Shown piece by piece: positions 1,075 to 18,169 of a stretch of 32,395 nucleotides of DNA (the first letter of the stretch is position 1; each line of letters opens with the position of its first letter). The stretch covers positions 1 through 32,395 of the forward strand of contig NZ_BTTW01000008.1 of NCBI RefSeq assembly GCF_036245865.1. Reading direction: 5' to 3'. The notes beneath the pieces were generated by a model that had not been told where the DNA came from, did not search any database, and was given only the letters and a program-made list of their open reading frames with translations. A program made the translations under genes and the position numbers. The stretch is from Corallococcus caeni (GTDB lineage Bacteria > Myxococcota > Myxococcia > Myxococcales > Myxococcaceae).

Positions 1075-1622
1075 TGGCGAAGAAATGGTTCACGGTCCAG
1101 ACCTACTCGAACTACGAGAACCAGGCGAAGAAGAACCTGGAAGAGCAGGTGCGCCTCAAGGGCCTGCAGGACCAGGATCTGATCGGTGAGATCCTCATCC
1201 CCATGGAGCAGGTCGTGGAGATGGTGAACGGCGAGAAGAAGACCACCCGCCGCAAGCTCTTCCCGGGCTACATCTTCGTCCAGATGGAGCTCAACGACAT
1301 CACCGTCCACCTGGTGAAGAACACCTCCAAGGTGACAGGGTTTCCGGGCGTCGGCCAGAACGAGCAGCCCCGGCCCATGTCGGACCGCGAGGTCGAGCGC
1401 CTCACCGCGCAGGTCACCGAGGGCGCCCACAAAGCCAAGCCCAAGGTCCAGTTCGAGACCAGCGACACGGTGCGCGTCATCGACGGCCCGTTCGCGAACT
1501 TCAACGGCACCGTGGAAGAGGTCAACCCGGAGAAGGGCCGCGTGCGCGTGCTCGTCAGCATCTTCGGCCGTGCGACCCCCGTGGAGCTCGACTTCATGCA
1601 GGTGGAGAAGACCACCGGCTAG
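1074..1622 (+). CDS. nusG: Transcription termination/antitermination factor NusG
   Basis: MAKKWFTVQTYSNYENQAKKNLEEQV... NGN domain plus a C-terminal KOW (RVIDGPFANFNGTVEEVNPEKGRVRVLVSIFGRATPVELDF). The 281-aa track ORF from 777 is an upstream extension overlapping secE and is rejected. Confidence 0.95.
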   Translation: MAKKWFTVQTYSNYENQAKKNLEEQVRLKGLQDQDLIGEILIPMEQVVEMVNGEKKTTRRKLFPGYIFVQMELNDITVHLVKNTSKVTGFPGVGQNEQPRPMSDREVERLTAQVTEGAHKAKPKVQFETSDTVRVIDGPFANFNGTVEEVNPEKGRVRVLVSIFGRATPVELDFMQVEKTTG

Positions 1623-1660
1623 TTTCCCCAGTCTTCCGCGTCCGTCACCCGGGCGCGGAT

Positions 1661-1709
1661 CAACGGGTGGGAGGGTCGTCCCGTCTGGCGACCCGTTGGA
1701 ACCACCCTC
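1661..1709 (+). promoter_or_regulatory. rplK leader nested hairpin, a candidate L1-binding autoregulatory mimic
   Basis: Outer stem GGGTGG/CCACCC encloses inner stem GGGTCG-tcccgtctgg-CGACCC. It lies about 20 nt upstream of the rplK ATG. L1 is known to autoregulate the L11 operon through a leader structure. Confidence 0.3.
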
Positions 1710-1730
1710 TCGAAAGGCAGCAGTCCGCCG

Positions 1731-2177
1731 ATGAAGAAGGTCACAGGTCAGGTCAAGTTGCAGATCCCCGCCGGCAAGGCGAACCCCGCCCCGCCGATTG
1801 GTCCCGCGCTCGGTCAGCAGGGCGTGAACATCATGGAGTTCTGCAAGCAGTTCAACGCCAAGACGCAGGCGGAGGCCAAGGAGGGTCTGATCATCCCGGT
1901 GATCATCACCGTGTATCAGGACCGCTCCTTCACCTTCATCCTGAAGACCCCTCCCGCCGCGATCCTCATCAAGAAGGCCGCGGGTCTCCACACGGAGAAG
2001 AAGAAGGGTTCGGGCGCGAAGAAGCCGGGCAAGGAGAAGGTGGGGACGATCACCCGCAAGCAGCTCGAGGAGATCGCCAACAAGAAGATCCAGGACACCA
2101 CCGCCGCGTCCATCGAAGCCTGCATGAACACCATTGCTGGCACCGCGCGCTCCATGGGCATCGACGTCGTCGGCTAG
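1731..2177 (+). CDS. rplK: 50S ribosomal protein L11
   Basis: [46 protein letters not shown]... is the canonical L11 N-terminus. Confidence 0.95.
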
Positions 2178-2205
2178 CCCGCCCCATCTTTCAAGGATTC
2201 CTGCC

Positions 2206-2919
2206 ATGGCTACCAATGGAAAGAAGTTCCGCGCGTCCAACGAGCTGGTGGACCGCAACAAGCGCTACCCTGTCGCCGAGGGCTTCGCGCTGCTGAAGAA
2301 GACGGTGGAGACCCGCGCGACGAAGTACGACCAGACGGTCGACGTCGCCATCAACCTGGGCGTGGACCCCAAGCACGCGGACCAGATGGTCCGTGGCGCC
2401 GTGGTGCTCCCGCACGGCACCGGCGCCACCGTGCGCGTGGCCGTGTTCGCCAAGGGTGAGCGCGCCACCGAGGCCGCCAACGCCGGCGCGGACATCGTGG
2501 GCGCGGAGGACCTCCAGAAGCGCATCGAGGAGGGCTTCCTCGACTTCGACACCGTCATCGCGACGCCGGACATGATGGGTATCGTCGGCCGCCTCGGTAA
2601 GGTACTCGGTCCCCGTGGCCTCATGCCGAACCCGAAGGTCGGCACGGTGACCATGGACGTCGCCAAGGCCATCCGCGACTCCAAGGGCGGTAAGGTGGAC
2701 TTCCGCGCGGAGAAGGCGGGCATCGTCCACGCGAAGATGGGCAAGGCCTCCTTCGCCGCGGACAAGCTCGAGGCGAACTTCAACGCGCTGGTGGACCTGG
2801 TGATGAAGCTCAAGCCGGCCACCGCCAAGGGCGTGTACCTGAAGGGCATCGCCATCTCGACGACCATGGGGCCGGGCATCAAGCTCGACACCACGGAAAT
2901 CCTGGCGCGTCACCGCTAG
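2206..2919 (+). CDS. rplA: 50S ribosomal protein L1
   Basis: [32 protein letters not shown]... with an AAGGAT RBS upstream. The track ORF start at 2134 is a spurious N-extension overlapping rplK. Confidence 0.95.
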
Positions 2920-3025
2920 TCGCGGGTGTCAGGACGGGCAGGGAAGGGTGCGCTCCCTGACGGGGAGCGTCAGTCCCGTCGCCCGTAGAACATCAGCCCG
3001 ATAGAAAGTGCTGGATCTTTGCGAA

Positions 3026-3053
3026 AGCCGGGGGTATAGGCCCCCGGCTTTTG
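3026..3053 (+). terminator. rplJ leader attenuator: intrinsic terminator-like hairpin inside the 397-nt L10 leader
   Basis: AGCCGGGGG-tatagg-CCCCCGGCT (9-bp GC stem) is followed directly by TTTTGC. In enterobacteria this hairpin+T-tract position within the rplJ leader is an attenuator. Confidence 0.5.
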
Positions 3054-3276
3054 CAATTGGAGCGCCATGTCGAGAGACGCGGCGTTTCGACCTGGTTCAT
3101 GACAGCAGGGACCTGGAAGGGAGAAGACGCGTCCGTTGGGAACCGGGCAACCGGTCGGGCCGTCCATCCACTCCTGGTTCAAACGACCGCAAGGTCAGCC
3201 CTGCCGAGACTGGAGGTGCGGTGTGGTGCCTCTCGGAGGCCCCCCTCTCGCTCTGCCACTTTGGCCCAGGCATCAC

Positions 3277-3296
3277 GCCCGACCGTCAGGTCGGGC
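3277..3296 (+). promoter_or_regulatory. Hairpin GCCCGACC-gtca-GGTCGGGC immediately 5' of the rplJ Shine-Dalgarno
   Basis: Perfect 8-bp stem with a tetraloop. It ends 5 nt before AAGGAGGTGA (3301-3310), and the GTG start is at 3317. Candidate L10-(L12)4 autoregulatory element or mRNA stabiliser. Confidence 0.35.
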
Positions 3297-3316
3297 CATG
3301 AAGGAGGTGAGTCAAG

Positions 3317-3838
3317 GTGCTGAAGAGCGAGAAGGAAGAGATGATCAAGGATCTTCACGAGAAGTTCACCCGGACCAAGACCGCGGTGCTCGTGGAGTCC
3401 TCCAAGGTGAACGTCGAGACCGTCACCAAGCTGCGTCGCAAGTTCCGCGAGGGCAAGGTTGAGTACAAGGTCATCAAGAACACGCTGGCGCGTCGTGCCG
3501 CTCAGGGTACGTCCGTCTCCGTGATTTCGGATGACTTCACGGGTCCCGTGGCGCTGTGCATCAGCTACGACGACGTGGTGGCTCCTGCGAAGATCCTGAT
3601 GGATTTCATCAAGGACATGGAGACCATCAAGGTCCGTAGCGCCGTGGTGGACGGCAAGAAGATTGACGTCAACGGCGTGAAGGCGCTGGCGAAGATGCCG
3701 GGCCTCAACGAGCTGCGCGGGCAGTTGCTCGGCATGCTCAACCAGCCGGCAGGCAAGCTGGTTCGGACCATCGCGGCCCCCGGGTCGCAGCTCGCGCGGG
3801 TGCTGCAGGCCAACGCGGACAAGTCGCAGGGGCAGTAA
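3317..3838 (+). CDS. rplJ: 50S ribosomal protein L10
   Basis: GTG start 7 nt after AAGGAGGTGA. (M)LKSEKEEMIKDLHEKFTRTKTAVLVESSKVNVETVTKLRRKFREGKVEYKVIKNTLARRA... is L10. Confidence 0.9.
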   Translation: MLKSEKEEMIKDLHEKFTRTKTAVLVESSKVNVETVTKLRRKFREGKVEYKVIKNTLARRAAQGTSVSVISDDFTGPVALCISYDDVVAPAKILMDFIKDMETIKVRSAVVDGKKIDVNGVKALAKMPGLNELRGQLLGMLNQPAGKLVRTIAAPGSQLARVLQANADKSQGQ

Positions 3839-3930
3839 TCATCCCGAGAAGTTTTTCTACCGCAACCTCTTCGGTGCGGCAGCCCAGATGGGTCGCCCAC
3901 CGTTAGTCAACCGCAGAAGGACACAGTTCA

Positions 3931-4302
3931 ATGGCTGACCTGAATTCGATTGTCGACCAGCTCTCCTCGCTCACCGTCATGGAAGCGGCCGAGCTCGTGA
4001 AGCAGCTTGAGGCGAAGTGGGGCGTTTCCGCCGCCGCCGTGGCCGTTGCCGCCGCGGGCCCTGCCGCCGCCGCCGCTCCTGTCGAGGAGAAGACGGAGTT
4101 CAACGTGGTGCTGGCGAACGCCGGCGCCAACAAGATCAACGTCATCAAGGAGATCCGCGCCATCACCGGCCTGGGCCTGAAGGAGGCCAAGGACCTGGTC
4201 GAGGGCGCGCCCAAGACGGTCAAGGAAGGCGTCAACAAGGACGACGCCAAGAAGATCAAGGACCAGCTCGTCGCGGCTGGCGCCACCGTCGAGATCAAGT
4301 AG
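3931..4302 (+). CDS. rplL: 50S ribosomal protein L7/L12
   Basis: [61 protein letters not shown]...GATVEIK has the L12 N-terminal dimerisation domain, Ala-rich hinge and C-terminal domain. Confidence 0.95.
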
Positions 4303-4308
4303 TTCTGT

Positions 4309-4400
4309 ACAGGGGCTGCCCTGTTCTTCCGGGAAATCCCGGGCAGCCTGCTGATCGGATGAGCAGGCCGGCGCTCCCTTTGCTGGGGCGCCGGCTTTGC
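4309..4400 (+). terminator. rplL-rpoB intergenic hairpin cluster (partial terminator / attenuator and likely processing site)
   Basis: ACAGGG-gctg-CCCTGT (4309-4324) then tcttcc. The alternative GGCTGCCC (4313-4320) / GGGCAGCC (4341-4348) overlaps it. GCCTGCT (4346-4352) / AGCAGGC (4362-4368). GCCGGCGC (4367-4374) / GCGCCGGC (4388-4395) is followed by TTTGCCCATTTG. Confidence 0.45.
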
Positions 4401-4483
4401 CCATTTGACATTTGCCAAATTTCCCGGCGCCGCCGCGCGTTACTGAAGTTTGCCCCGCCCGAGCAGCCGTCCCCGGAGACCGA

Positions 4484-8710
<4,227 letters not shown>

Positions 8711-8842: not shown

Positions 8843-13054
<4,212 letters not shown>

Positions 13055-13063
13055 TCATTCCCC

Positions 13064-13133
13064 GAAGCGTCCCTGACGCTTCGTGAGTCAGCCGCCGTCC
13101 TGGTGTCATGCCGGGGCGGCGGCTTTCTTGTTT
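13064..13133 (+). terminator. Intrinsic terminator after rpoC (two hairpins, the second with a U-tract)
   Basis: GAAGCGTC-cct-GACGCTTC (13064-13082). Then AGCCGCCG (13090-13097) / CGGCGGCT (13117-13124) followed by TTCTTGTTTCGC. Confidence 0.65.
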
Positions 13134-13155
13134 CGCACAGTTCGCACTTGTTGCC

Positions 13156-13183
13156 TTGACACCATGTCGCGGTGCGTTATGTT
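13156..13183 (+). promoter_or_regulatory. Sigma70-like promoter TTGACA-N16-TATGTT for the phasin-like gene pair
   Basis: TTGACA at 13156-13161 and TATGTT at 13178-13183 with a 16-nt spacer. The first downstream ATG is at 13230 behind a GGGGGGA RBS. Confidence 0.45.
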
Positions 13184-13229
13184 GACGCATCACGTTATCA
13201 AACCCGGATCAGCCGGGGGGGAGCACGAC

Positions 13230-13691
13230 ATGGCGACGACGAGTGCGAAGGCAGCGGACAAGGCGGGCGTGACGCAGAACGTGGAGGCCTTCCTGAAGGG
13301 GCGGTTCTCCGAGGCGCACAAGCGGTTCCAGGGCCTGGAAGGGGAGGCGAACAAGGCCTTCCGTGCGCTGGAGACGCGGAGCCAGGTGGCGGCGAAGGAG
13401 GTCCAGGCCCTCTGGACGAAGGTGCAGGCCGGTGAGCTGCGCGCCGACCCCCGCGTTCAGGAGCTGACCAAGAAGGTGGACGAGGCGGGTGTGGAGCTGC
13501 GCAAGCGGCTGGACGGGCTCCAGGCGAAGGTCGTGGAGGCGGTGGGAGTTGCCAGCCAGTCCCAGGTGCAGCAGATCACCCAGGAGCTGGGCCGCCTGTC
13601 GAAGAAGCTGGATGTGCTCCTGAAGCCCACCCGGCGCGCCCACCCTTCGACCAAGAATTCCGGCGGCGCGGCGTCTTCTCCGCGCGCCTGA
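13230..13691 (+). CDS. Phasin-family (PHA-granule-associated-protein-like, TIGR01837/PF05597-type) coiled-coil protein
   Basis: 153 aa MATTSAKAADKAGVTQNVEAFLKGRFSEAHKRFQGLEGEANKAFRALETRSQVAAKEVQALWTKV...QQITQELGRLSKKLDVLLK. All-helical heptad-rich composition. The C-terminal ...LGRLSKKLDVLL resembles the phasin-family ending. The track start at 13083 is rejected because it runs through the terminator and promoter. Confidence 0.55.
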   Translation: MATTSAKAADKAGVTQNVEAFLKGRFSEAHKRFQGLEGEANKAFRALETRSQVAAKEVQALWTKVQAGELRADPRVQELTKKVDEAGVELRKRLDGLQAKVVEAVGVASQSQVQQITQELGRLSKKLDVLLKPTRRAHPSTKNSGGAASSPRA

Positions 13692-13793
13692 GCAGCGTTT
13701 TCATCACCCACGGGGTGTGCTTAGGTCGCAGACCCCTTTGAATGCCCTGGGTTCCTTCCAAGCGAAGGGCCCGGGCACTCCCGGAGCGACTTC

Positions 13794-14144
13794 ATGGACA
13801 ACAACACCGAGGCCCCCCGAGAGAAGCCTTCCGTGGCGGAGGCGTTCGAGCGGATCTGGAGCCAGGCGCTCCTGGCCGTGAACACGGCCGAGGAAGAGGC
13901 TTCCCGCGCCGTGCAGCGCGTGGCGTCCGTCGCGGGCTGGAGCCAGGACGAGGTGAAACGTCAGGCCCGCGAGTTCGCGGAGCGCCTGACGGGGCACCGC
14001 AAGGACCTGGAGCACAACGTGGAGGAGCGGGTCCGCACGGCCCTGACCCTCCTGAAGCTGCCGCGCCGCGAGGAGTTGCAGGCCTTCGGTGCCCGCCTGG
14101 AGCGTCTGAACGAACGCATCCAGGCCCTGGAGCACCGTAAGTGA
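13794..14144 (+). CDS. Phasin-family coiled-coil protein, paralog of the upstream gene
   Basis: 116 aa. The ...LKLPRREELQAFGARLERLNERIQALEHRK ending matches the conserved C-terminal motif of TIGR01837 phasin-like proteins (l-p-t-r-e-e-v-e-a-L-x-x-R-i-d-x-L) as remembered. Confidence 0.6.
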   Translation: MDNNTEAPREKPSVAEAFERIWSQALLAVNTAEEEASRAVQRVASVAGWSQDEVKRQAREFAERLTGHRKDLEHNVEERVRTALTLLKLPRREELQAFGARLERLNERIQALEHRK

Positions 14145-14902
14145 GTGGCCCCGCCGCCTCGGGCGGCAGGTCGCTGGGAACGCGGTTCTTCGCGGGGCTG
14201 CATGCCCTGAGCAGCGGGTGCTCCCGGCTCCCGTTGCTCGCGGGTGTGGCGCTCGTGGTGTCCGCGCGGGTGGTGCCCCTCCTGGAGGAGCCCGCCCCCC
14301 AGTCCATGGTCCCCGAGCTGGTGGCGCAGGAGGCCGTCTCCGAGGAGGCGGCGCTCATCGACGCCGTGCTGGCCAAGCGCGCCCCGGACCTGGGGCTCAC
14401 GCTGCGCCGGCGTCTGGGGCAGGCCATCGACGAGGAGTCGCGCCGCACGGGGTATGACCCGCTGCTGGTGCTGGCCCTCATCGACGTGGAGTCCGACTTC
14501 GAGGAGGAATCCGTCTCCGAGAAGGGCGCCCGGGGCCTGATGCAGATCAAGCCCAGCACGCTGCACTTCCTGGCGGAGAAGGAAGGCCTGAAGCTGTCGC
14601 GCGAGGAAGTGGTGGCGGACCCCGCCGTCTGCGTGCGCCTGGGCATCCGCTACCTGCGCAACCTGCAGGGCCGCTTCGGCGGCGATCTGGACCTGGCGCT
14701 GATGGCCTACAACGCGGGCCCCACGCGCATCCGGGACGCGATGAAGGCCGGGGAGCTGGAGAAGTTCCGCCGCTATCCCCGGGCCGTGCGGCGCGACTTC
14801 CGCCGCTTCCGCGAAGGCCACGGTCTGGGCGGGGACTGGGCCCTGGCGCAGCGCGAGCCGCCTCCGCCGACGCCCGACGAGACGCCGACCGCGGCGCCCT
14901 GA
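14141..14902 (+). CDS. Lytic transglycosylase (SLT domain), signal-anchored
   Basis: GTG start overlaps the upstream stop (GTGA). Hydrophobic N-region LPLLAGVALVVSARVV. SLT motifs: the catalytic Glu context LALIDVESDFEE, then GARGLMQIKPST and AYNAGPTRI. Confidence 0.8.
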   Translation: MSGPAASGGRSLGTRFFAGLHALSSGCSRLPLLAGVALVVSARVVPLLEEPAPQSMVPELVAQEAVSEEAALIDAVLAKRAPDLGLTLRRRLGQAIDEESRRTGYDPLLVLALIDVESDFEEESVSEKGARGLMQIKPSTLHFLAEKEGLKLSREEVVADPAVCVRLGIRYLRNLQGRFGGDLDLALMAYNAGPTRIRDAMKAGELEKFRRYPRAVRRDFRRFREGHGLGGDWALAQREPPPPTPDETPTAAP

Positions 14903-15063
14903 AGGGCCCCAGCGGTCCGATTGGAAGACGGGCCCCCGGGTGAATGTTCGGGGCGGCGGAGCGCTCCAAGAGGCGCCGTCCCCGCCTTGTTCCGCTCCCC
15001 CGGGTGCGCTAAGTCGTTGCAAGCCCCCGGGACTGTTGAGGATTCCCAGGAGGAATGCCCCCC

Positions 15064-15747
15064 ATGCCCCGCCCGTCCGCCCGCATTGCCATCACCGTCG
15101 CGGCCTCGCTCGTTCCCATGCTGGCCCTCGCCGGTTCGGTCTTCCTGAACGGCGTGAAGATCGACGGTGTGACGAACACGCGCTTCGAGAAGGCCACTGT
15201 CCGCATCGACGCGGAGGGGAACGTCCACATCGACGCGCCGGGGTACGCCGCCCGCGTGACGACCGTGACGCCCACGCCCGCGACGCCTTCCACCGCCACT
15301 CCGCCTGCCGCCACGCCCCCGGACGCGGGCGTCGTCGCGCAGGCTCCCGGGCCGGCTGCCCCCGCCGCGCCTCCGTCCGTGCCGGGTCGCATCACCCAGC
15401 GCTACTGGCTGGTGACGGAGCAGACGACGCCGGGCATGACGGACTTCGACATCGACGTGTACGTGAACTCGCGCTGGCTGCGTCGTTTGCGCAACAACGA
15501 GGATCAGGTGGTGGTGGACATCACCAGTCAGTTGCGTCCCGGCGCGAACGCGGTGACGCTGATTGCCCGCAAGCAGGCCACGGGGAACCGCCGCAGCACT
15601 TCGCCCGCGAACGTCTTCAAGGTGATCATCGGCGAGGGCAACGAGGGCGGCGGCAACGTGATGATTGACACGCCCCTCATCCGCTTCCAGAAGACGGCTG
15701 CGGACGCGCAGGACGCGACCGAGGAGTTCACCCTCACCACCCGCTAG
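15064..15747 (+). CDS. Secreted hypothetical protein with a Pro/Thr/Ala-rich linker
   Basis: MPRPSARIAITVAASLVPMLALAGSVF is a signal peptide with ALA|GS cleavage. The second ATG (15064) is 10 nt after AGGAGG. The first ATG (15055) sits only 1 nt after the SD. The PT-rich stretch is TVTPTPATPSTATPPAATPP. The ~100-aa C-terminal domain has no recognised family. Confidence 0.6.
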   Translation: MPRPSARIAITVAASLVPMLALAGSVFLNGVKIDGVTNTRFEKATVRIDAEGNVHIDAPGYAARVTTVTPTPATPSTATPPAATPPDAGVVAQAPGPAAPAAPPSVPGRITQRYWLVTEQTTPGMTDFDIDVYVNSRWLRRLRNNEDQVVVDITSQLRPGANAVTLIARKQATGNRRSTSPANVFKVIIGEGNEGGGNVMIDTPLIRFQKTAADAQDATEEFTLTTR

Positions 15748-15770
15748 GGTGCGCGGGAAGGGAGACGACG

Positions 15771-16235
15771 GTGTTCACCATCGACGAGCGCTACCGGGGC
15801 CTCCCCGCGAATCGCGACCAGGTGCTCGCGCTGCACCTGTCCCTCAACGCGCCGCACGTGGCGATTCCCGGCAAGCAGGCCGGGCCCGCGCAGGCCTTCG
15901 TGGTGGGGCTGCGCGGCGGGCAGGGCGCGGGCGTCTTCGTGTACCTGTACCTCGTGGAAGCGGGGGACTGCGCGGTGTACGTGTCCGGCCGGCGCATCCA
16001 GTCCGCGGACGAGCTGCGCGAGGACGAGGACGACGCGCTCGCGTTCGTGGAGTCGCTGGGCTTCATGATGGACAACGCGAACTGGCGTGCCGCGGCGCCC
16101 GCGCAGCAGGACGAGTGGCTCAAGACGCTGCCGGTGTTCTTCCGGGAGCCCACGCTCGTGCCCGCCGTGAAGGCCCGCGCCGAAGAGAAGCGCAACGTCG
16201 CCACCACCCTGGGCCGCTTCCTGGCCGCGTTCTGA
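15771..16235 (+). CDS. Hypothetical cytoplasmic protein (154 aa)
   Basis: GTG start 6 nt after GGGAG. High-GC3 codon usage consistent with a real gene. No recognisable motif. Confidence 0.55.
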   Translation: MFTIDERYRGLPANRDQVLALHLSLNAPHVAIPGKQAGPAQAFVVGLRGGQGAGVFVYLYLVEAGDCAVYVSGRRIQSADELREDEDDALAFVESLGFMMDNANWRAAAPAQQDEWLKTLPVFFREPTLVPAVKARAEEKRNVATTLGRFLAAF

Positions 16236-16258
16236 CCCTCCACCCCGGATTGGCACCC

Positions 16259-17017
16259 ATGTCCCGCATCACTTCCTCCTGCTTCCTCGCGTTCGCGCTC
16301 GCGTCGGCGGGCTGCGCGCACGTCCCCACGGAGAAGGAGCGCCGGAGCTCGGAGATCCACTACGACCTGGGCATCCAGGCCCAGCAGCACGGCCATGTGC
16401 AGGACGCGCTCGCGGAGTACCAGAAGGCGCTGGAGCAGAACCCGGACAACCCGGAGGCCCACAACGCGGTGGGGCTCCTGCTGCACCTGTCCTTCCGGCG
16501 GCTCGACGAGGCGTCGTCCCATTACGAGCAGGCGCTGAAGCTGCGGCCGTCCTTCTCCGACGCGCGCACCAACCTGGGCAACCTGCGCCTGGACCAGGGC
16601 CGCTACGACGACGCCATCAAGCTGTACGAGGAGTCGCTCAACGACATGCAGTACCGCTACGGCTTCTCCGCGCAGAACAACATGGGCTGGGCCCTCTACA
16701 AGAAGGGCGACACGGTGAACGCGCTGCAGAACATCAAGGCGGCCATCACCACCAACCCGGACTTCTGCCTGGGCTACAAGAACCTGGGTATCATCTACGA
16801 CGAGACGGGCAAGACGGAGGAGGCGTGCCGGCAGTTCGCGCACTACCGTGAGAAGTGCCCGGACGTGGCGGAGGCCTACCAGCGCGAAGGCGTTTGCCAG
16901 GCGAAGCTCGGGCGGGTGGACGAGGCGAAGGCTGCGTTCGCGGGCTGCGAGTCCAAGGCCCAGCCCAACGAGCAGGTGCTCAAGGACGACTGCCGCTCAC
17001 TGCTGGACCACCTCTAG
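16259..17017 (+). CDS. TPR-repeat outer-membrane lipoprotein (PilF/Tgl-like), Cys-rich C-terminus
   Basis: MSRITSSCFLAFALASAG|C carries a lipobox. At least 5-6 TPR units (AEYQKALEQNPDNPEAHNAVGLLL..., YEQALKLRPSFSDARTNLGNL..., GRYDDAIKLYEESL..., ALQNIKAAITTNPDF..., CRQFAHYREKCPDVAEAY...). Six Cys in the last ~70 aa. Size, lipoprotein type and position a few genes downstream of rpoC fit the Myxococcus social-motility lipoprotein Tgl, recalled from memory only. The 450-aa track ORF from 15665 is rejected. Confidence 0.75.
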   Translation: MSRITSSCFLAFALASAGCAHVPTEKERRSSEIHYDLGIQAQQHGHVQDALAEYQKALEQNPDNPEAHNAVGLLLHLSFRRLDEASSHYEQALKLRPSFSDARTNLGNLRLDQGRYDDAIKLYEESLNDMQYRYGFSAQNNMGWALYKKGDTVNALQNIKAAITTNPDFCLGYKNLGIIYDETGKTEEACRQFAHYREKCPDVAEAYQREGVCQAKLGRVDEAKAAFAGCESKAQPNEQVLKDDCRSLLDHL

Positions 17018-17038
17018 GCGCGGGGGCCCCGAAAGACC

Positions 17039-17425
17039 GTGGACCACGTCGACTTCGGCAAATACCTCAGCCAGCAGCGCGAGCTTCGCGGCCTGTCGCG
17101 CGAGGACGTCTCCCGGGAGACGAAGATTCCCCCCAGCCTCGTCGCGGCGCTGGAGGCGGGGCAGGTGGAGCGGCTGCCCGAGCGCGTGTTCGTGCTGAAC
17201 TACATCCGCGCGTACGCGCAGGTCATCGGCCTGTCGCCGGAGGAAGCGGCGCTGCGCTACGAGGAGGTGGACCGGGCCGTGCCCGCGCCTTCGCCGGTGC
17301 AGCTCGAGAAGGAGCGGCGCAAGCGGGCGTACATCATCCTGGCCGTGCTGCTGGCGGTCCTGCTCCTGGGCGCGGCCCTGTTCCTGGTGCTGTCCGGGAA
17401 GCTTCCGCCCCCCACGGCGCGTTGA
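17039..17425 (+). CDS. Small HTH (XRE/RodZ-N-terminal-like) protein with a C-terminal transmembrane helix
   Basis: The HTH is ...LSQQRELRGLSREDVSRETKIPPSLVAALEAG.... The C-terminal membrane helix is AYIILAVLLAVLLLGAALFLVLSG. GTG start. Confidence 0.55.
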   Translation: MDHVDFGKYLSQQRELRGLSREDVSRETKIPPSLVAALEAGQVERLPERVFVLNYIRAYAQVIGLSPEEAALRYEEVDRAVPAPSPVQLEKERRKRAYIILAVLLAVLLLGAALFLVLSGKLPPPTAR

Positions 17426-17434
17426 AGAGGGGTT

Positions 17435-18169
17435 ATGGAGCGGTACGCCGACGACGCGTTCGTGCTGTCCACGGTCGACTATGGTGAGTCCGACCGGATG
17501 GTGACGTTGCTGACGCGCGAGCACGGCAAGCTGACCGCGTTCGCCGCGGGAGCGCGCAAGAGCAAGCGCCGGTTCGCGGGGGCGCTGGAGCCGTTCATGC
17601 GGCTGCGCGTGCAGCTCGTGGAGACGCGCGGCAGCACGGTGCGGTTGGACTCGGCGGACATCGTTGCGGGCTTCTACGCCGCGCGCGAGGACCTGTCGCT
17701 CATCGCCCGGGCGCTGTACGCGGTGGAGCTGTGCCGCGAGCTCACGCGCGACCATGAGCCGCACCCGGAGCTGTTCGAGCTGGTGGAGGGCTACCTGCAC
17801 CGGCTGGACGCGAAGGAGGCCGGGCCCACGTCGTTGCTTGCGTTCGAGCTGGCGGCGCTGGCGCAGGCTGGCTTGATGCCGCGCTTCGACTCCTGCTCCC
17901 TGTGTGGCGGCCAGCCCGGTGAGCGGCCCCGGTTCGATCAAGGCCACGGTGGCGCGGTGTGCGAGCCGTGTGGCGGACGCGCGCGTGATTCCGTGGCGGT
18001 GCCGGTGGCGCTGCTGTCCGGCCTGCGGTCGCTCCAGGAAGGCGCGCGCACGCCGCTGCCTCCGGACCTTCGCGCTCGGGCGCGGGGACTGCTCAACGTC
18101 TTCATCGCGCACCACCTGGGCCGCAAGCTCAAGAGCGTGGACTTCATGGCGCAGGTGGGCCTGGACTGA
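17435..18169 (+). CDS. recO: DNA repair protein RecO
   Basis: MERYADDAFVLSTVDYGESDRMVTLLTREHGKLTAFAAGARKSKRRFAGALEPF... is a RecO N-terminal OB fold. The C-terminal zinc-finger cysteines are CSLCGG...CEPCGG. Confidence 0.9.
   Translation: MERYADDAFVLSTVDYGESDRMVTLLTREHGKLTAFAAGARKSKRRFAGALEPFMRLRVQLVETRGSTVRLDSADIVAGFYAAREDLSLIARALYAVELCRELTRDHEPHPELFELVEGYLHRLDAKEAGPTSLLAFELAALAQAGLMPRFDSCSLCGGQPGERPRFDQGHGGAVCEPCGGRARDSVAVPVALLSGLRSLQEGARTPLPPDLRARARGLLNVFIAHHLGRKLKSVDFMAQVGLD

Follow-up and report, generated by a model that had tools for sequence, protein, structure and literature searches.

We analysed a 32,395-nucleotide (nt) stretch of the Corallococcus caeni genome (contig NZ_BTTW01000008.1, hereafter the window), in which three genes follow rpoC: gene A, gene B and a gene for a lytic transglycosylase with an SLT domain (the SLT gene). 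The invariant core of this operon is the cytoplasmic phasin-family protein B coupled to an exported family-1 lytic transglycosylase, with A as an optional upstream gene. The SLT gene lay directly 3′ of B in 89 out of 89 B-type loci examined. Because the pair and its coupled junction persist through repeated rearrangement while A and a neighbouring block around tgl come and go, B and the transglycosylase may well form a functional unit in peptidoglycan and cell-wall remodelling rather than in polyhydroxyalkanoate (PHA) storage, a reading that we hold tentatively. The families of A, B and the SLT enzyme were already known; what is new is the invariant pairing of B and SLT across contexts, the function of which is undescribed. 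The survival of rearrangements by the pair is the best available argument for B working with the enzyme or being needed alongside it.

Conservation of the B-SLT pair across genomic contexts

The B alignment was used in a tblastn scan of one genome per species, which yielded 79 loci, each from a different assembly and with one copy per genome. All of them came from Myxococcaceae in the broad sense or from metagenome-assembled genomes (MAGs) of Myxococcota. An SLT homologue directly followed B in each of these and in four metagenomic or MAG contigs (83/83 loci), and the pairing was also found in six more distant loci (L084, L085, L086, L089, L090 and L091), which completes the 89. An exhaustive hidden Markov model search with the B profile returned 758 representatives at E ≤ 1e-3, 87 of which reached E ≤ 1e-10, and among its distant matches the pairing still held where B was 33-40% identical. 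No SLT gene neighboured the phasin relatives that fell just outside this group (profile E about 5e-12 to 5e-13), which indicates that the B-SLT pairing marks a discrete subfamily. The nearest of these relatives (L087, 5383-6351; L092, 2814-3835) were preceded, 3-26 nt upstream, by a gene for a protein of 204-208 amino acids (aa) with no significant family match, and the two genes may form a further fixed pair of a phasin and its partner.

The flanks of B-SLT fell into at least five different contexts. Corallococcus, Myxococcus, Pyxidicoccus and Hyalangium presented the order rpoBC-A-B-SLT-p230-p154-Tgl-HTH-RecO (HTH, helix-turn-helix), and Archangium, Cystobacter and Vitiosangium the same order without A. 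A distant MAG clade carried nuoA-nuoB-(x)-A-like-B-SLT-thioesterase, L084 and L089 carried rpoBC-B-SLT with nuoBA on the opposite strand, and L091 carried secDF-A-like-B-SLT. The pair was found as dihydroorotate dehydrogenase gene-A-like-B-SLT in L090, where the Tgl block was inverted, and together with the Tgl block in the absence of rpoC in L086. A is dispensable, as it was lost in Archangium, Cystobacter and Vitiosangium (L044-L060 and L063), in which only about 300 nt separated rpoC from B. These loci kept both conserved non-coding elements described below, suggesting that A was deleted in this clade. Where the Tgl block was not beside the module (L068-L080 and L089), a gene of 152-168 aa followed SLT (for example, L074 7078-7542 and L089 6965-7423); the one copy scanned, that of L089, was 4HBT thioesterase-like, and its relatives shared a CFGCGPSN motif.

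The coupled junction and the transglycosylase

Gene B ends in AAG-TGA, and the tetranucleotide GTGA at 14141-14144 (+ strand) is common to its stop and to the GTG start of the SLT gene (14141-14902, + strand, 253 aa, ortholog of Myxococcus xanthus MXAN_3081). This translational coupling junction, which an earlier note made from the sequence of the window alone had pointed out, proved to be real. A 4-base overlap was kept in 59 out of 67 distinct junctions from other genomes (88%; 54 GTGA and five ATGA), the remaining eight presenting short gaps, of 1-46 nt among the loci listed. The SLT frame opened exactly at the overlap GTG in several genomes, and the M. xanthus RefSeq annotation showed the same overlap, with B ending at 3608891 and SLT starting at 3608888. 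Downstream starts were also checked: GTG 14141 is the sole in-frame start ahead of the hydrophobic segment of the product, and the following possible starts, a TTG (codon 32) and a GTG (codon 36), fall inside it.

The product is an SLT-domain peptidoglycan lytic transglycosylase, as the note had also claimed. It matched PF01464 with 82.3 bits (cut-off 21.3) and carried the full catalytic motif set of family 1, namely E117-S118 (Glu117 codon 14489-14491), GLMQ at residues 132-135 (14534-14545) and AYNAG at residues 189-193 (14705-14719), all of which were kept in 20 SLT orthologues. The closest solved relative was Pseudomonas aeruginosa Slt (6fbt, E 1e-12), with the ES motif aligned. RefSeq names the gene product 'lytic transglycosylase domain-containing protein', and MXAN_3081 has been assigned to Slt/MltE family 1 among the 14 lytic transglycosylases of M. 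xanthus (PMC11444678).

The enzyme begins with a long Arg-rich region (residues 1-29), followed by one hydrophobic segment (residues 30-48, 14228-14284; Kyte-Doolittle 19-residue mean 2.12) that is broken by Arg43 and leads into a V-S-A/R peptidase-like site. Judging from the sequence, this stretch could be an uncleaved membrane anchor, as the note had it, or, equally, a cleavable signal peptide. The N-terminal region was long and conserved in core Myxococcaceae (R.F..LHALSSGC.+LPLL), the nuoAB-context clade had its own long Arg-rich version, and the C-terminus carried a conserved Arg-rich / GDWALA extension. When compared to other family-1 enzymes (Slt70, P. aeruginosa Slt, MltE/EmtA and the machine-associated EtgA/VirB1 type), the protein shares the SLT domain with its ES, GLMQ and AYNAG motifs but differs in being a minimal single domain preceded by a long N-terminal region and one hydrophobic segment, in lacking superhelical U/L domains and a lipobox, in its Arg-rich / GDWA C-terminal extension, and in having a cytoplasmic phasin-like cistron coupled upstream.

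Family and structure of A and B

Gene B (13794-14144, + strand, 116 aa, ortholog of MXAN_3080) matched the PF05597 Phasin family with 37.8 bits (E 2.3e-9), above the gathering cut-off of 28.8, and precomputed PF05597 matches were listed for nearly all B homologues. In contrast, it scored 32.6 bits with TIGR01837 (PHA_granule_1), for which the cut-off is 94.7. The product of gene A (13230-13691, + strand, ATG start, 153 aa, ortholog of MXAN_3079) reached 19.5 bits with PF05597, under the cut-off, and showed no match to TIGR01837. The proposal that both small proteins belong to the phasin family therefore stood for B with PF05597, but not for B with TIGR01837 or for the A of the window with either model. 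Nevertheless, 20 out of 22 members of the A family matched PF05597 at E ≤ 0.01, the best of them at 5.7e-8. The A and B families also aligned along their whole length in hhalign (102 columns, probability 82.8%, E 9.3e-6). Since a direct BLASTP comparison of A and B gave no alignment, the relationship was visible by profile-profile comparison only. On the strength of these profile matches, A and B are best described as distant paralogues, A being a divergent phasin-family relative.

A protein identical to the 153-aa product of A is on record for Corallococcus caeni (P0079), and the B product was 99% identical to that of Corallococcus sp. CA049B. A is soluble, basic (isoelectric point 10.2) and helical, with an invariant GVA[ST] motif. 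Both A and B are hydrophilic, and neither presented a hydrophobic segment (Kyte-Doolittle 19-residue maxima of 0.36 and 0.60, respectively, versus 2.12 for the SLT protein). The AlphaFold2 model of B (predicted local distance difference test score of 78) placed three helices at residues 14-47, 51-86 and 92-115, of which the first was amphipathic (hydrophobic moment 0.52). The invariant residues of B were W22, A25, E33, R69 and P90. Its resemblance to the PHA phasins of the Pseudomonas PhaF/PhaI type (PF05597/TIGR01837) includes the small all-helical amphipathic build, the PF05597 score, an N-terminal W..A(L) helix and a C-terminal 'P-R/S-R-x-E...L..R+..L' leucine-zipper-like helix. B differs from them in failing TIGR01837, in the absence of a histone-like tail and of neighbouring PHA genes, in its invariable position directly before, and coupling to, the gene of a peptidoglycan lytic transglycosylase, and in a location amid housekeeping genes (rpoBC, nuoAB, secDF). 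UbiK is a small soluble coiled-coil protein thought to act at membranes. B is weakly similar to this UbiK/BMFP family over the C-terminal helix (PF04380 25.7 bits, cut-off 37.2), and both are small soluble coiled coils, but B scored below the cut-offs (NF047835 15.1 bits, cut-off 100) and had no ubiquinone-biosynthesis context.

Expression of the operon in Myxococcus xanthus

We consulted RNA sequencing data of M. xanthus during predation and growth (PMC9548883, Table S1B), given for 10 samples as fragments per kilobase per million (FPKM). Values ranged from 764 to 2052 FPKM for MXAN_3079 (A), from 493 to 1299 for MXAN_3080 (B) and from 51 to 155 for MXAN_3081 (SLT). The B and SLT mRNAs varied together (Pearson r 0.87; log 0.93), whereas A correlated poorly with B (r = 0.37) and not with SLT (r = -0.04). 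In these data B followed SLT and a ribosomal-protein-like resumption of growth, and not A. A developmental (starvation) time course, which lists 1415 regulated genes in reads per kilobase per million (RPKM; PMC6791715), showed A rising from 1075 to 5651 RPKM by 24 h (5.3-fold) and B from 382 to about 1100 RPKM (peak 1110) by 12-48 h (2.9-fold). Both belonged to developmental group 7, and their transcripts were among the most abundant of the cell. In the same work, A was tagged 'up2' in a comparison with chemically induced sporulation, which we read as up-regulated. The A orthologue MXAN_3079 was also detected as a protein, and it responds to iron (PMC9548883, supplementary file 7).

A possible role for B at the transglycosylase

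How B might serve the enzyme can be proposed as follows. Through the coupling, an enzyme that cuts the wall and is potentially dangerous would be made in a low and fixed amount tied to the production of B. As an amphipathic coiled coil of a family that binds hydrophobic surfaces, B would act at the cytoplasmic face of the inner membrane, where its target would be the unusually long Arg-rich N-terminal region of the enzyme or its signal-anchor. B could then be a dedicated chaperone, targeting factor or adaptor of the enzyme, and A a starvation- and sporulation-induced, highly expressed paralogue added to the unit; phasin homologues would thus have been turned to a use unrelated to PHA granules. 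A bolder version, which seems unlikely, is that phasin-family proteins were recruited in Myxococcota as cytoplasmic partners, B binding the SLT tail or signal-anchor and gating insertion, placement or activity, and A linking the unit to the starvation programme. That programme would comprise cell shortening, the passage of membrane to lipid bodies and the remodelling or removal of the wall. If true, it would represent a new control, from inside the cell, of a peptidoglycan-cleaving enzyme and a new function of the phasin fold. The earlier note had suggested periplasmic scaffolding, or regulation of the transglycosylase, by the phasin-like proteins. The periplasmic part is unlikely, as A and B carry no export signal, and any contact with the enzyme would necessarily be on the cytoplasmic side; a scaffold or regulator role toward the enzyme stands as an inference.

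Several observations weigh against a unit of B and the enzyme. Translational coupling and conserved adjacency fall short of proving contact between them. The catalytic domain is periplasmic while A and B are cytoplasmic, so that B could reach no more of the enzyme than its short N-terminus, and this N-terminus was short and unconserved in the most distant pairs (L084, L089, L090 and L091), which weakens the chaperone or adaptor proposal. The B mRNA was about 8-fold over that of SLT in M. xanthus and MXAN_3081, unlike A and B, was outside the 1415 developmentally regulated genes, indicating that the regulation of B and SLT is not identical. A pilA strain from which MXAN_3081 had been deleted showed no defect in gliding (PMC11444678). 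Some SLT-linked members lacked the 'AGWSQDE' motif found in B, Foldseek matched the B model to no PDB entry at E < 1, and the A and B family profiles matched only generic coiled coils among PDB sequences.

Small helical or co-encoded partners that control a peptidoglycan enzyme are known from other systems. SleB and YpeB of Bacillus, for instance, are encoded in one bicistronic operon and are mutually dependent. The analogy with them and with the cytoplasmic coiled-coil adaptors of cell-wall enzymes of the GpsB/DivIVA type is functional only, since B has no sequence or fold relationship to these proteins and YpeB is extracytoplasmic. Lytic transglycosylases are numerous and redundant, as in M. 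xanthus with its 14 (PMC11444678), and their restraint is poorly understood; a partner coupled to one of them across a bacterial family would offer a concrete handle on this control, which the reshaping of the wall in Myxococcus sporulation makes relevant. Moreover, MXAN_3079-3081 are genetically tractable, so the partner idea is directly testable. In the open-access literature we found no discussion of MXAN_3079 or MXAN_3080, and MXAN_3081 alone appeared in a main text, that of the gliding screen. Searches of open-access text gave no association of a phasin with a lytic transglycosylase among the matches listed and nothing relevant for phasins with Myxococcus, and literature searches for myxobacteria with phaC were uninformative.

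Alternative explanations

The strongest alternative, which we regard as possible though still unlikely, is that A and B serve as amphipathic coat or protective proteins, present in large amounts, and merely share their expression with an SLT enzyme that trims the wall, the operon coupling timing and not contact. The surfaces coated would be triacylglycerol lipid bodies made from the surplus membrane of shortening cells, or stressed membranes or proteins. The membership of B in PF05597 agrees with such a role, and the B profile reached bona fide PHA regulators and phasins (PHB_acc_N + Phasin) at E about 1e-9. The very abundant A and B transcripts peaked at 12-24 h of starvation, before sporulation, and PMC6791715 and PMC4048283 describe lipid bodies as accumulating at that pre-sporulation stage from membrane phospholipid of shortening cells. 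The 'up2' tag of A and the position of the SLT gene outside the developmentally regulated set point the same way. However, this explanation accounts neither for the 4-base overlap in 88% of the distinct junctions nor for a pair that survived at least five rearrangements while A was freely lost, and in the predation data B follows SLT and not A. Likewise, no lipid-body proteome naming A or B was found in open-access text, and the lipid-body papers that we found did not name them.

A role of the enzyme as a dedicated 'space-maker' serving a trans-envelope machine, of which the type IVa pilus secretin assembled with Tgl is the most plausible candidate and B would be an accessory factor, is improbable. 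The neighbouring Tgl is a true equivalog (NF033762, 479.7 bits over the full length, cut-off 225), the p230-p154-Tgl-HTH-RecO block adjoined B-SLT in most Myxococcaceae and also in relatives of about 40% identity (L086 and, inverted, L090), and, according to the discussion in PMC11444678, SLT enzymes that specialise in serving secretion and flagellar machines are established elsewhere. In contrast, B-SLT had no Tgl block beside it in L001, L068-L080, L084, L089 and L091, a set that takes in the nuoAB-context clade. RecO and housekeeping genes in the block point to ordinary synteny, no pil genes were adjacent, and the papers found gave no S-motility report for an MXAN_3081 mutant. The envelope module with the Tgl lipoprotein block envisaged earlier was thus borne out as far as a frequent neighbourhood goes, but the block is separable, being absent or inverted in several loci.

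We attach equally little probability to a meaningless adjacency, that is, an inherited gene order in which the overlap arises incidentally, from a gene ending in Lys-AAG/TGA in a GC-rich genome. All loci did come from one phylum, AAG followed by TGA yields GTGA automatically, and stop/start overlaps are common in compact GC-rich operons. However, the flanks changed repeatedly and the pair did not, the SLT frame was aligned to the overlap GTG/ATG (in the window, the sole start ahead of the export segment), ATGA variants occurred, and the B and SLT mRNAs co-varied.

PHA storage is an unlikely role for the module, as had been claimed before, because TIGR01837 was failed, the module lies among housekeeping genes, and no PHA synthase, depolymerase or PhaR gene was present in any neighbourhood with Pfam calls, nor any PHA gene in the 32-kb window. 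It is highly improbable that A and B are true phasins of PHA granules in an organism storing PHA: B exceeds the PF05597 threshold and is named 'phasin family protein' in RefSeq and 'phasin' or 'PHA synthesis regulator phasin' in RefSeq/JGI, but it missed TIGR01837 by a wide margin, PHA genes were absent as stated, and PMC6791715 and PMC4048283 describe triacylglycerol lipid bodies as the storage inclusions of developing M. xanthus. The annotation 'phasin family protein' is not to be taken as evidence of PHA storage where no PHA context is evident.

Terminator, promoter and conserved non-coding elements

All genes of the window are on the + strand, running from tuf' to rplL, rpoB and rpoC (8843-13054) and then to A-B-SLT; the rpoC terminator, the promoter, A, B and the SLT gene were all found where the earlier note had placed them. 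The intrinsic terminator of rpoC (13090-13134, + strand) is predicted as a GC-rich hairpin with a T-run, its stem-loop (13090-13124) comprising 16 pairs (11 GC) and being followed by TTCTTGTTTC. Equivalent GCCGCCG...CGGCGGC-T-run hairpins were found upstream of A in other genera. Directly after it lies the predicted sigma-70-type promoter of gene A (13156-13183, + strand), with a -35 TTGACA (13156-13161), a 16-nt spacer and a -10 TATGTT (13178-13183). It agreed with the consensus at 10 out of 12 positions and was the sole match of this type in 12900-17500 (shuffles: 0.1), in keeping with the TTGACA-N16-TATGTT promoter proposed there. The conserved motif TTGACACCATGTCGCGGTGCGTTA at 13156-13179 is part of this promoter, which occupied the same position in all Corallococcus loci and, in a strict sigma-70 scan, was confined to this genus. 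A relaxed motif, TTGAC-N10-14-TGCGTTA, describes the element better than the strict match. It occurred once per locus and always upstream of A in 36 loci (0.02 expected per window) that span the whole range of A-bearing genomes, some of them from relatives whose B is about 50% identical.

A second conserved non-coding element is located between A and B (13697-13728, + strand; GTTTTCATCACCCACGGGGTGTGCTTAGGTCG). It reads GTTCCCTTC-N8-GGGTGTGCTTA, that is, GTT(C/T)CCTTC-N8-GGGTGTGCTTA, and is similar to the TGCGTTA portion of the promoter of A. Equivalents were present upstream of B in L009-L064, and the element was conserved in Corallococcus, Myxococcus, Hyalangium, Archangium and more distant MAGs, with a counterpart also retained by genomes without A. 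It probably serves B-SLT as a second promoter or an operator. The uncoupling of A mRNA from the B and SLT mRNAs in M. xanthus fits such a control element before B, and the expression data as a whole fit two control points in the operon. A single promoter driving both small genes, as suggested earlier, was therefore only partly upheld: the promoter upstream of A is there, but the conserved element before B and the uncorrelated A mRNA indicate that it probably does not drive A and B equally. Just 3′ of the -10, an inverted repeat of the TTGACG-N5-CGTCAA type was partial in the window (13182-13198, TTGACGCATCACGTTAT) and perfect in Hyalangium (L035, around 5380; TTGACGCGTCACGTCAA), and it may be an operator. 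The only Rfam match was a tRNA at 467-539, no RNA family being detected in the module region.

Neighbouring genes and further observations

Downstream of SLT, the block of frequent but separable neighbours (15055-18169, all + strand) comprises the secreted 230-aa protein p230 (15055-15747), the 154-aa protein p154 (15771-16235), the Tgl pilotin lipoprotein (16286-17017), a 128-aa HTH_25 protein with a transmembrane segment (17039-17425) and, as its last gene, RecO (17435-18169). Both p230, which has a signal peptide, and p154, which is cytoplasmic, were conserved without any Pfam or NCBIfam match, and they accompanied Tgl-HTH-RecO even where the block was inverted relative to B-SLT (L090). The HTH_25 protein combined an N-terminal HTH_25 domain (71.9 bits) with a C-terminal hydrophobic helix, resembling a short RodZ, and it was kept between tgl and recO down to 33-46% identity (L086 and L090).

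A metagenomic protein of 149 aa (P0201), in which the first 70 residues of a B homologue were fused to the SLT catalytic domain without the hydrophobic segment, was considered as a natural B-SLT fusion and rejected; it was absent from the contig index and probably reflects an artefact of assembly or deletion. Finally, the record BNCN01000010.1 (L033), titled 'Comamonas sp. KCTC 72670', carried a Myxococcus-type rpoC-A-B-SLT-Tgl locus with 80% B identity, and JBLZWL010000059.1 (L024), titled 'Corallococcus terminator BB12-2', grouped with Myxococcus (83%). Both are likely to be mislabelled assemblies.

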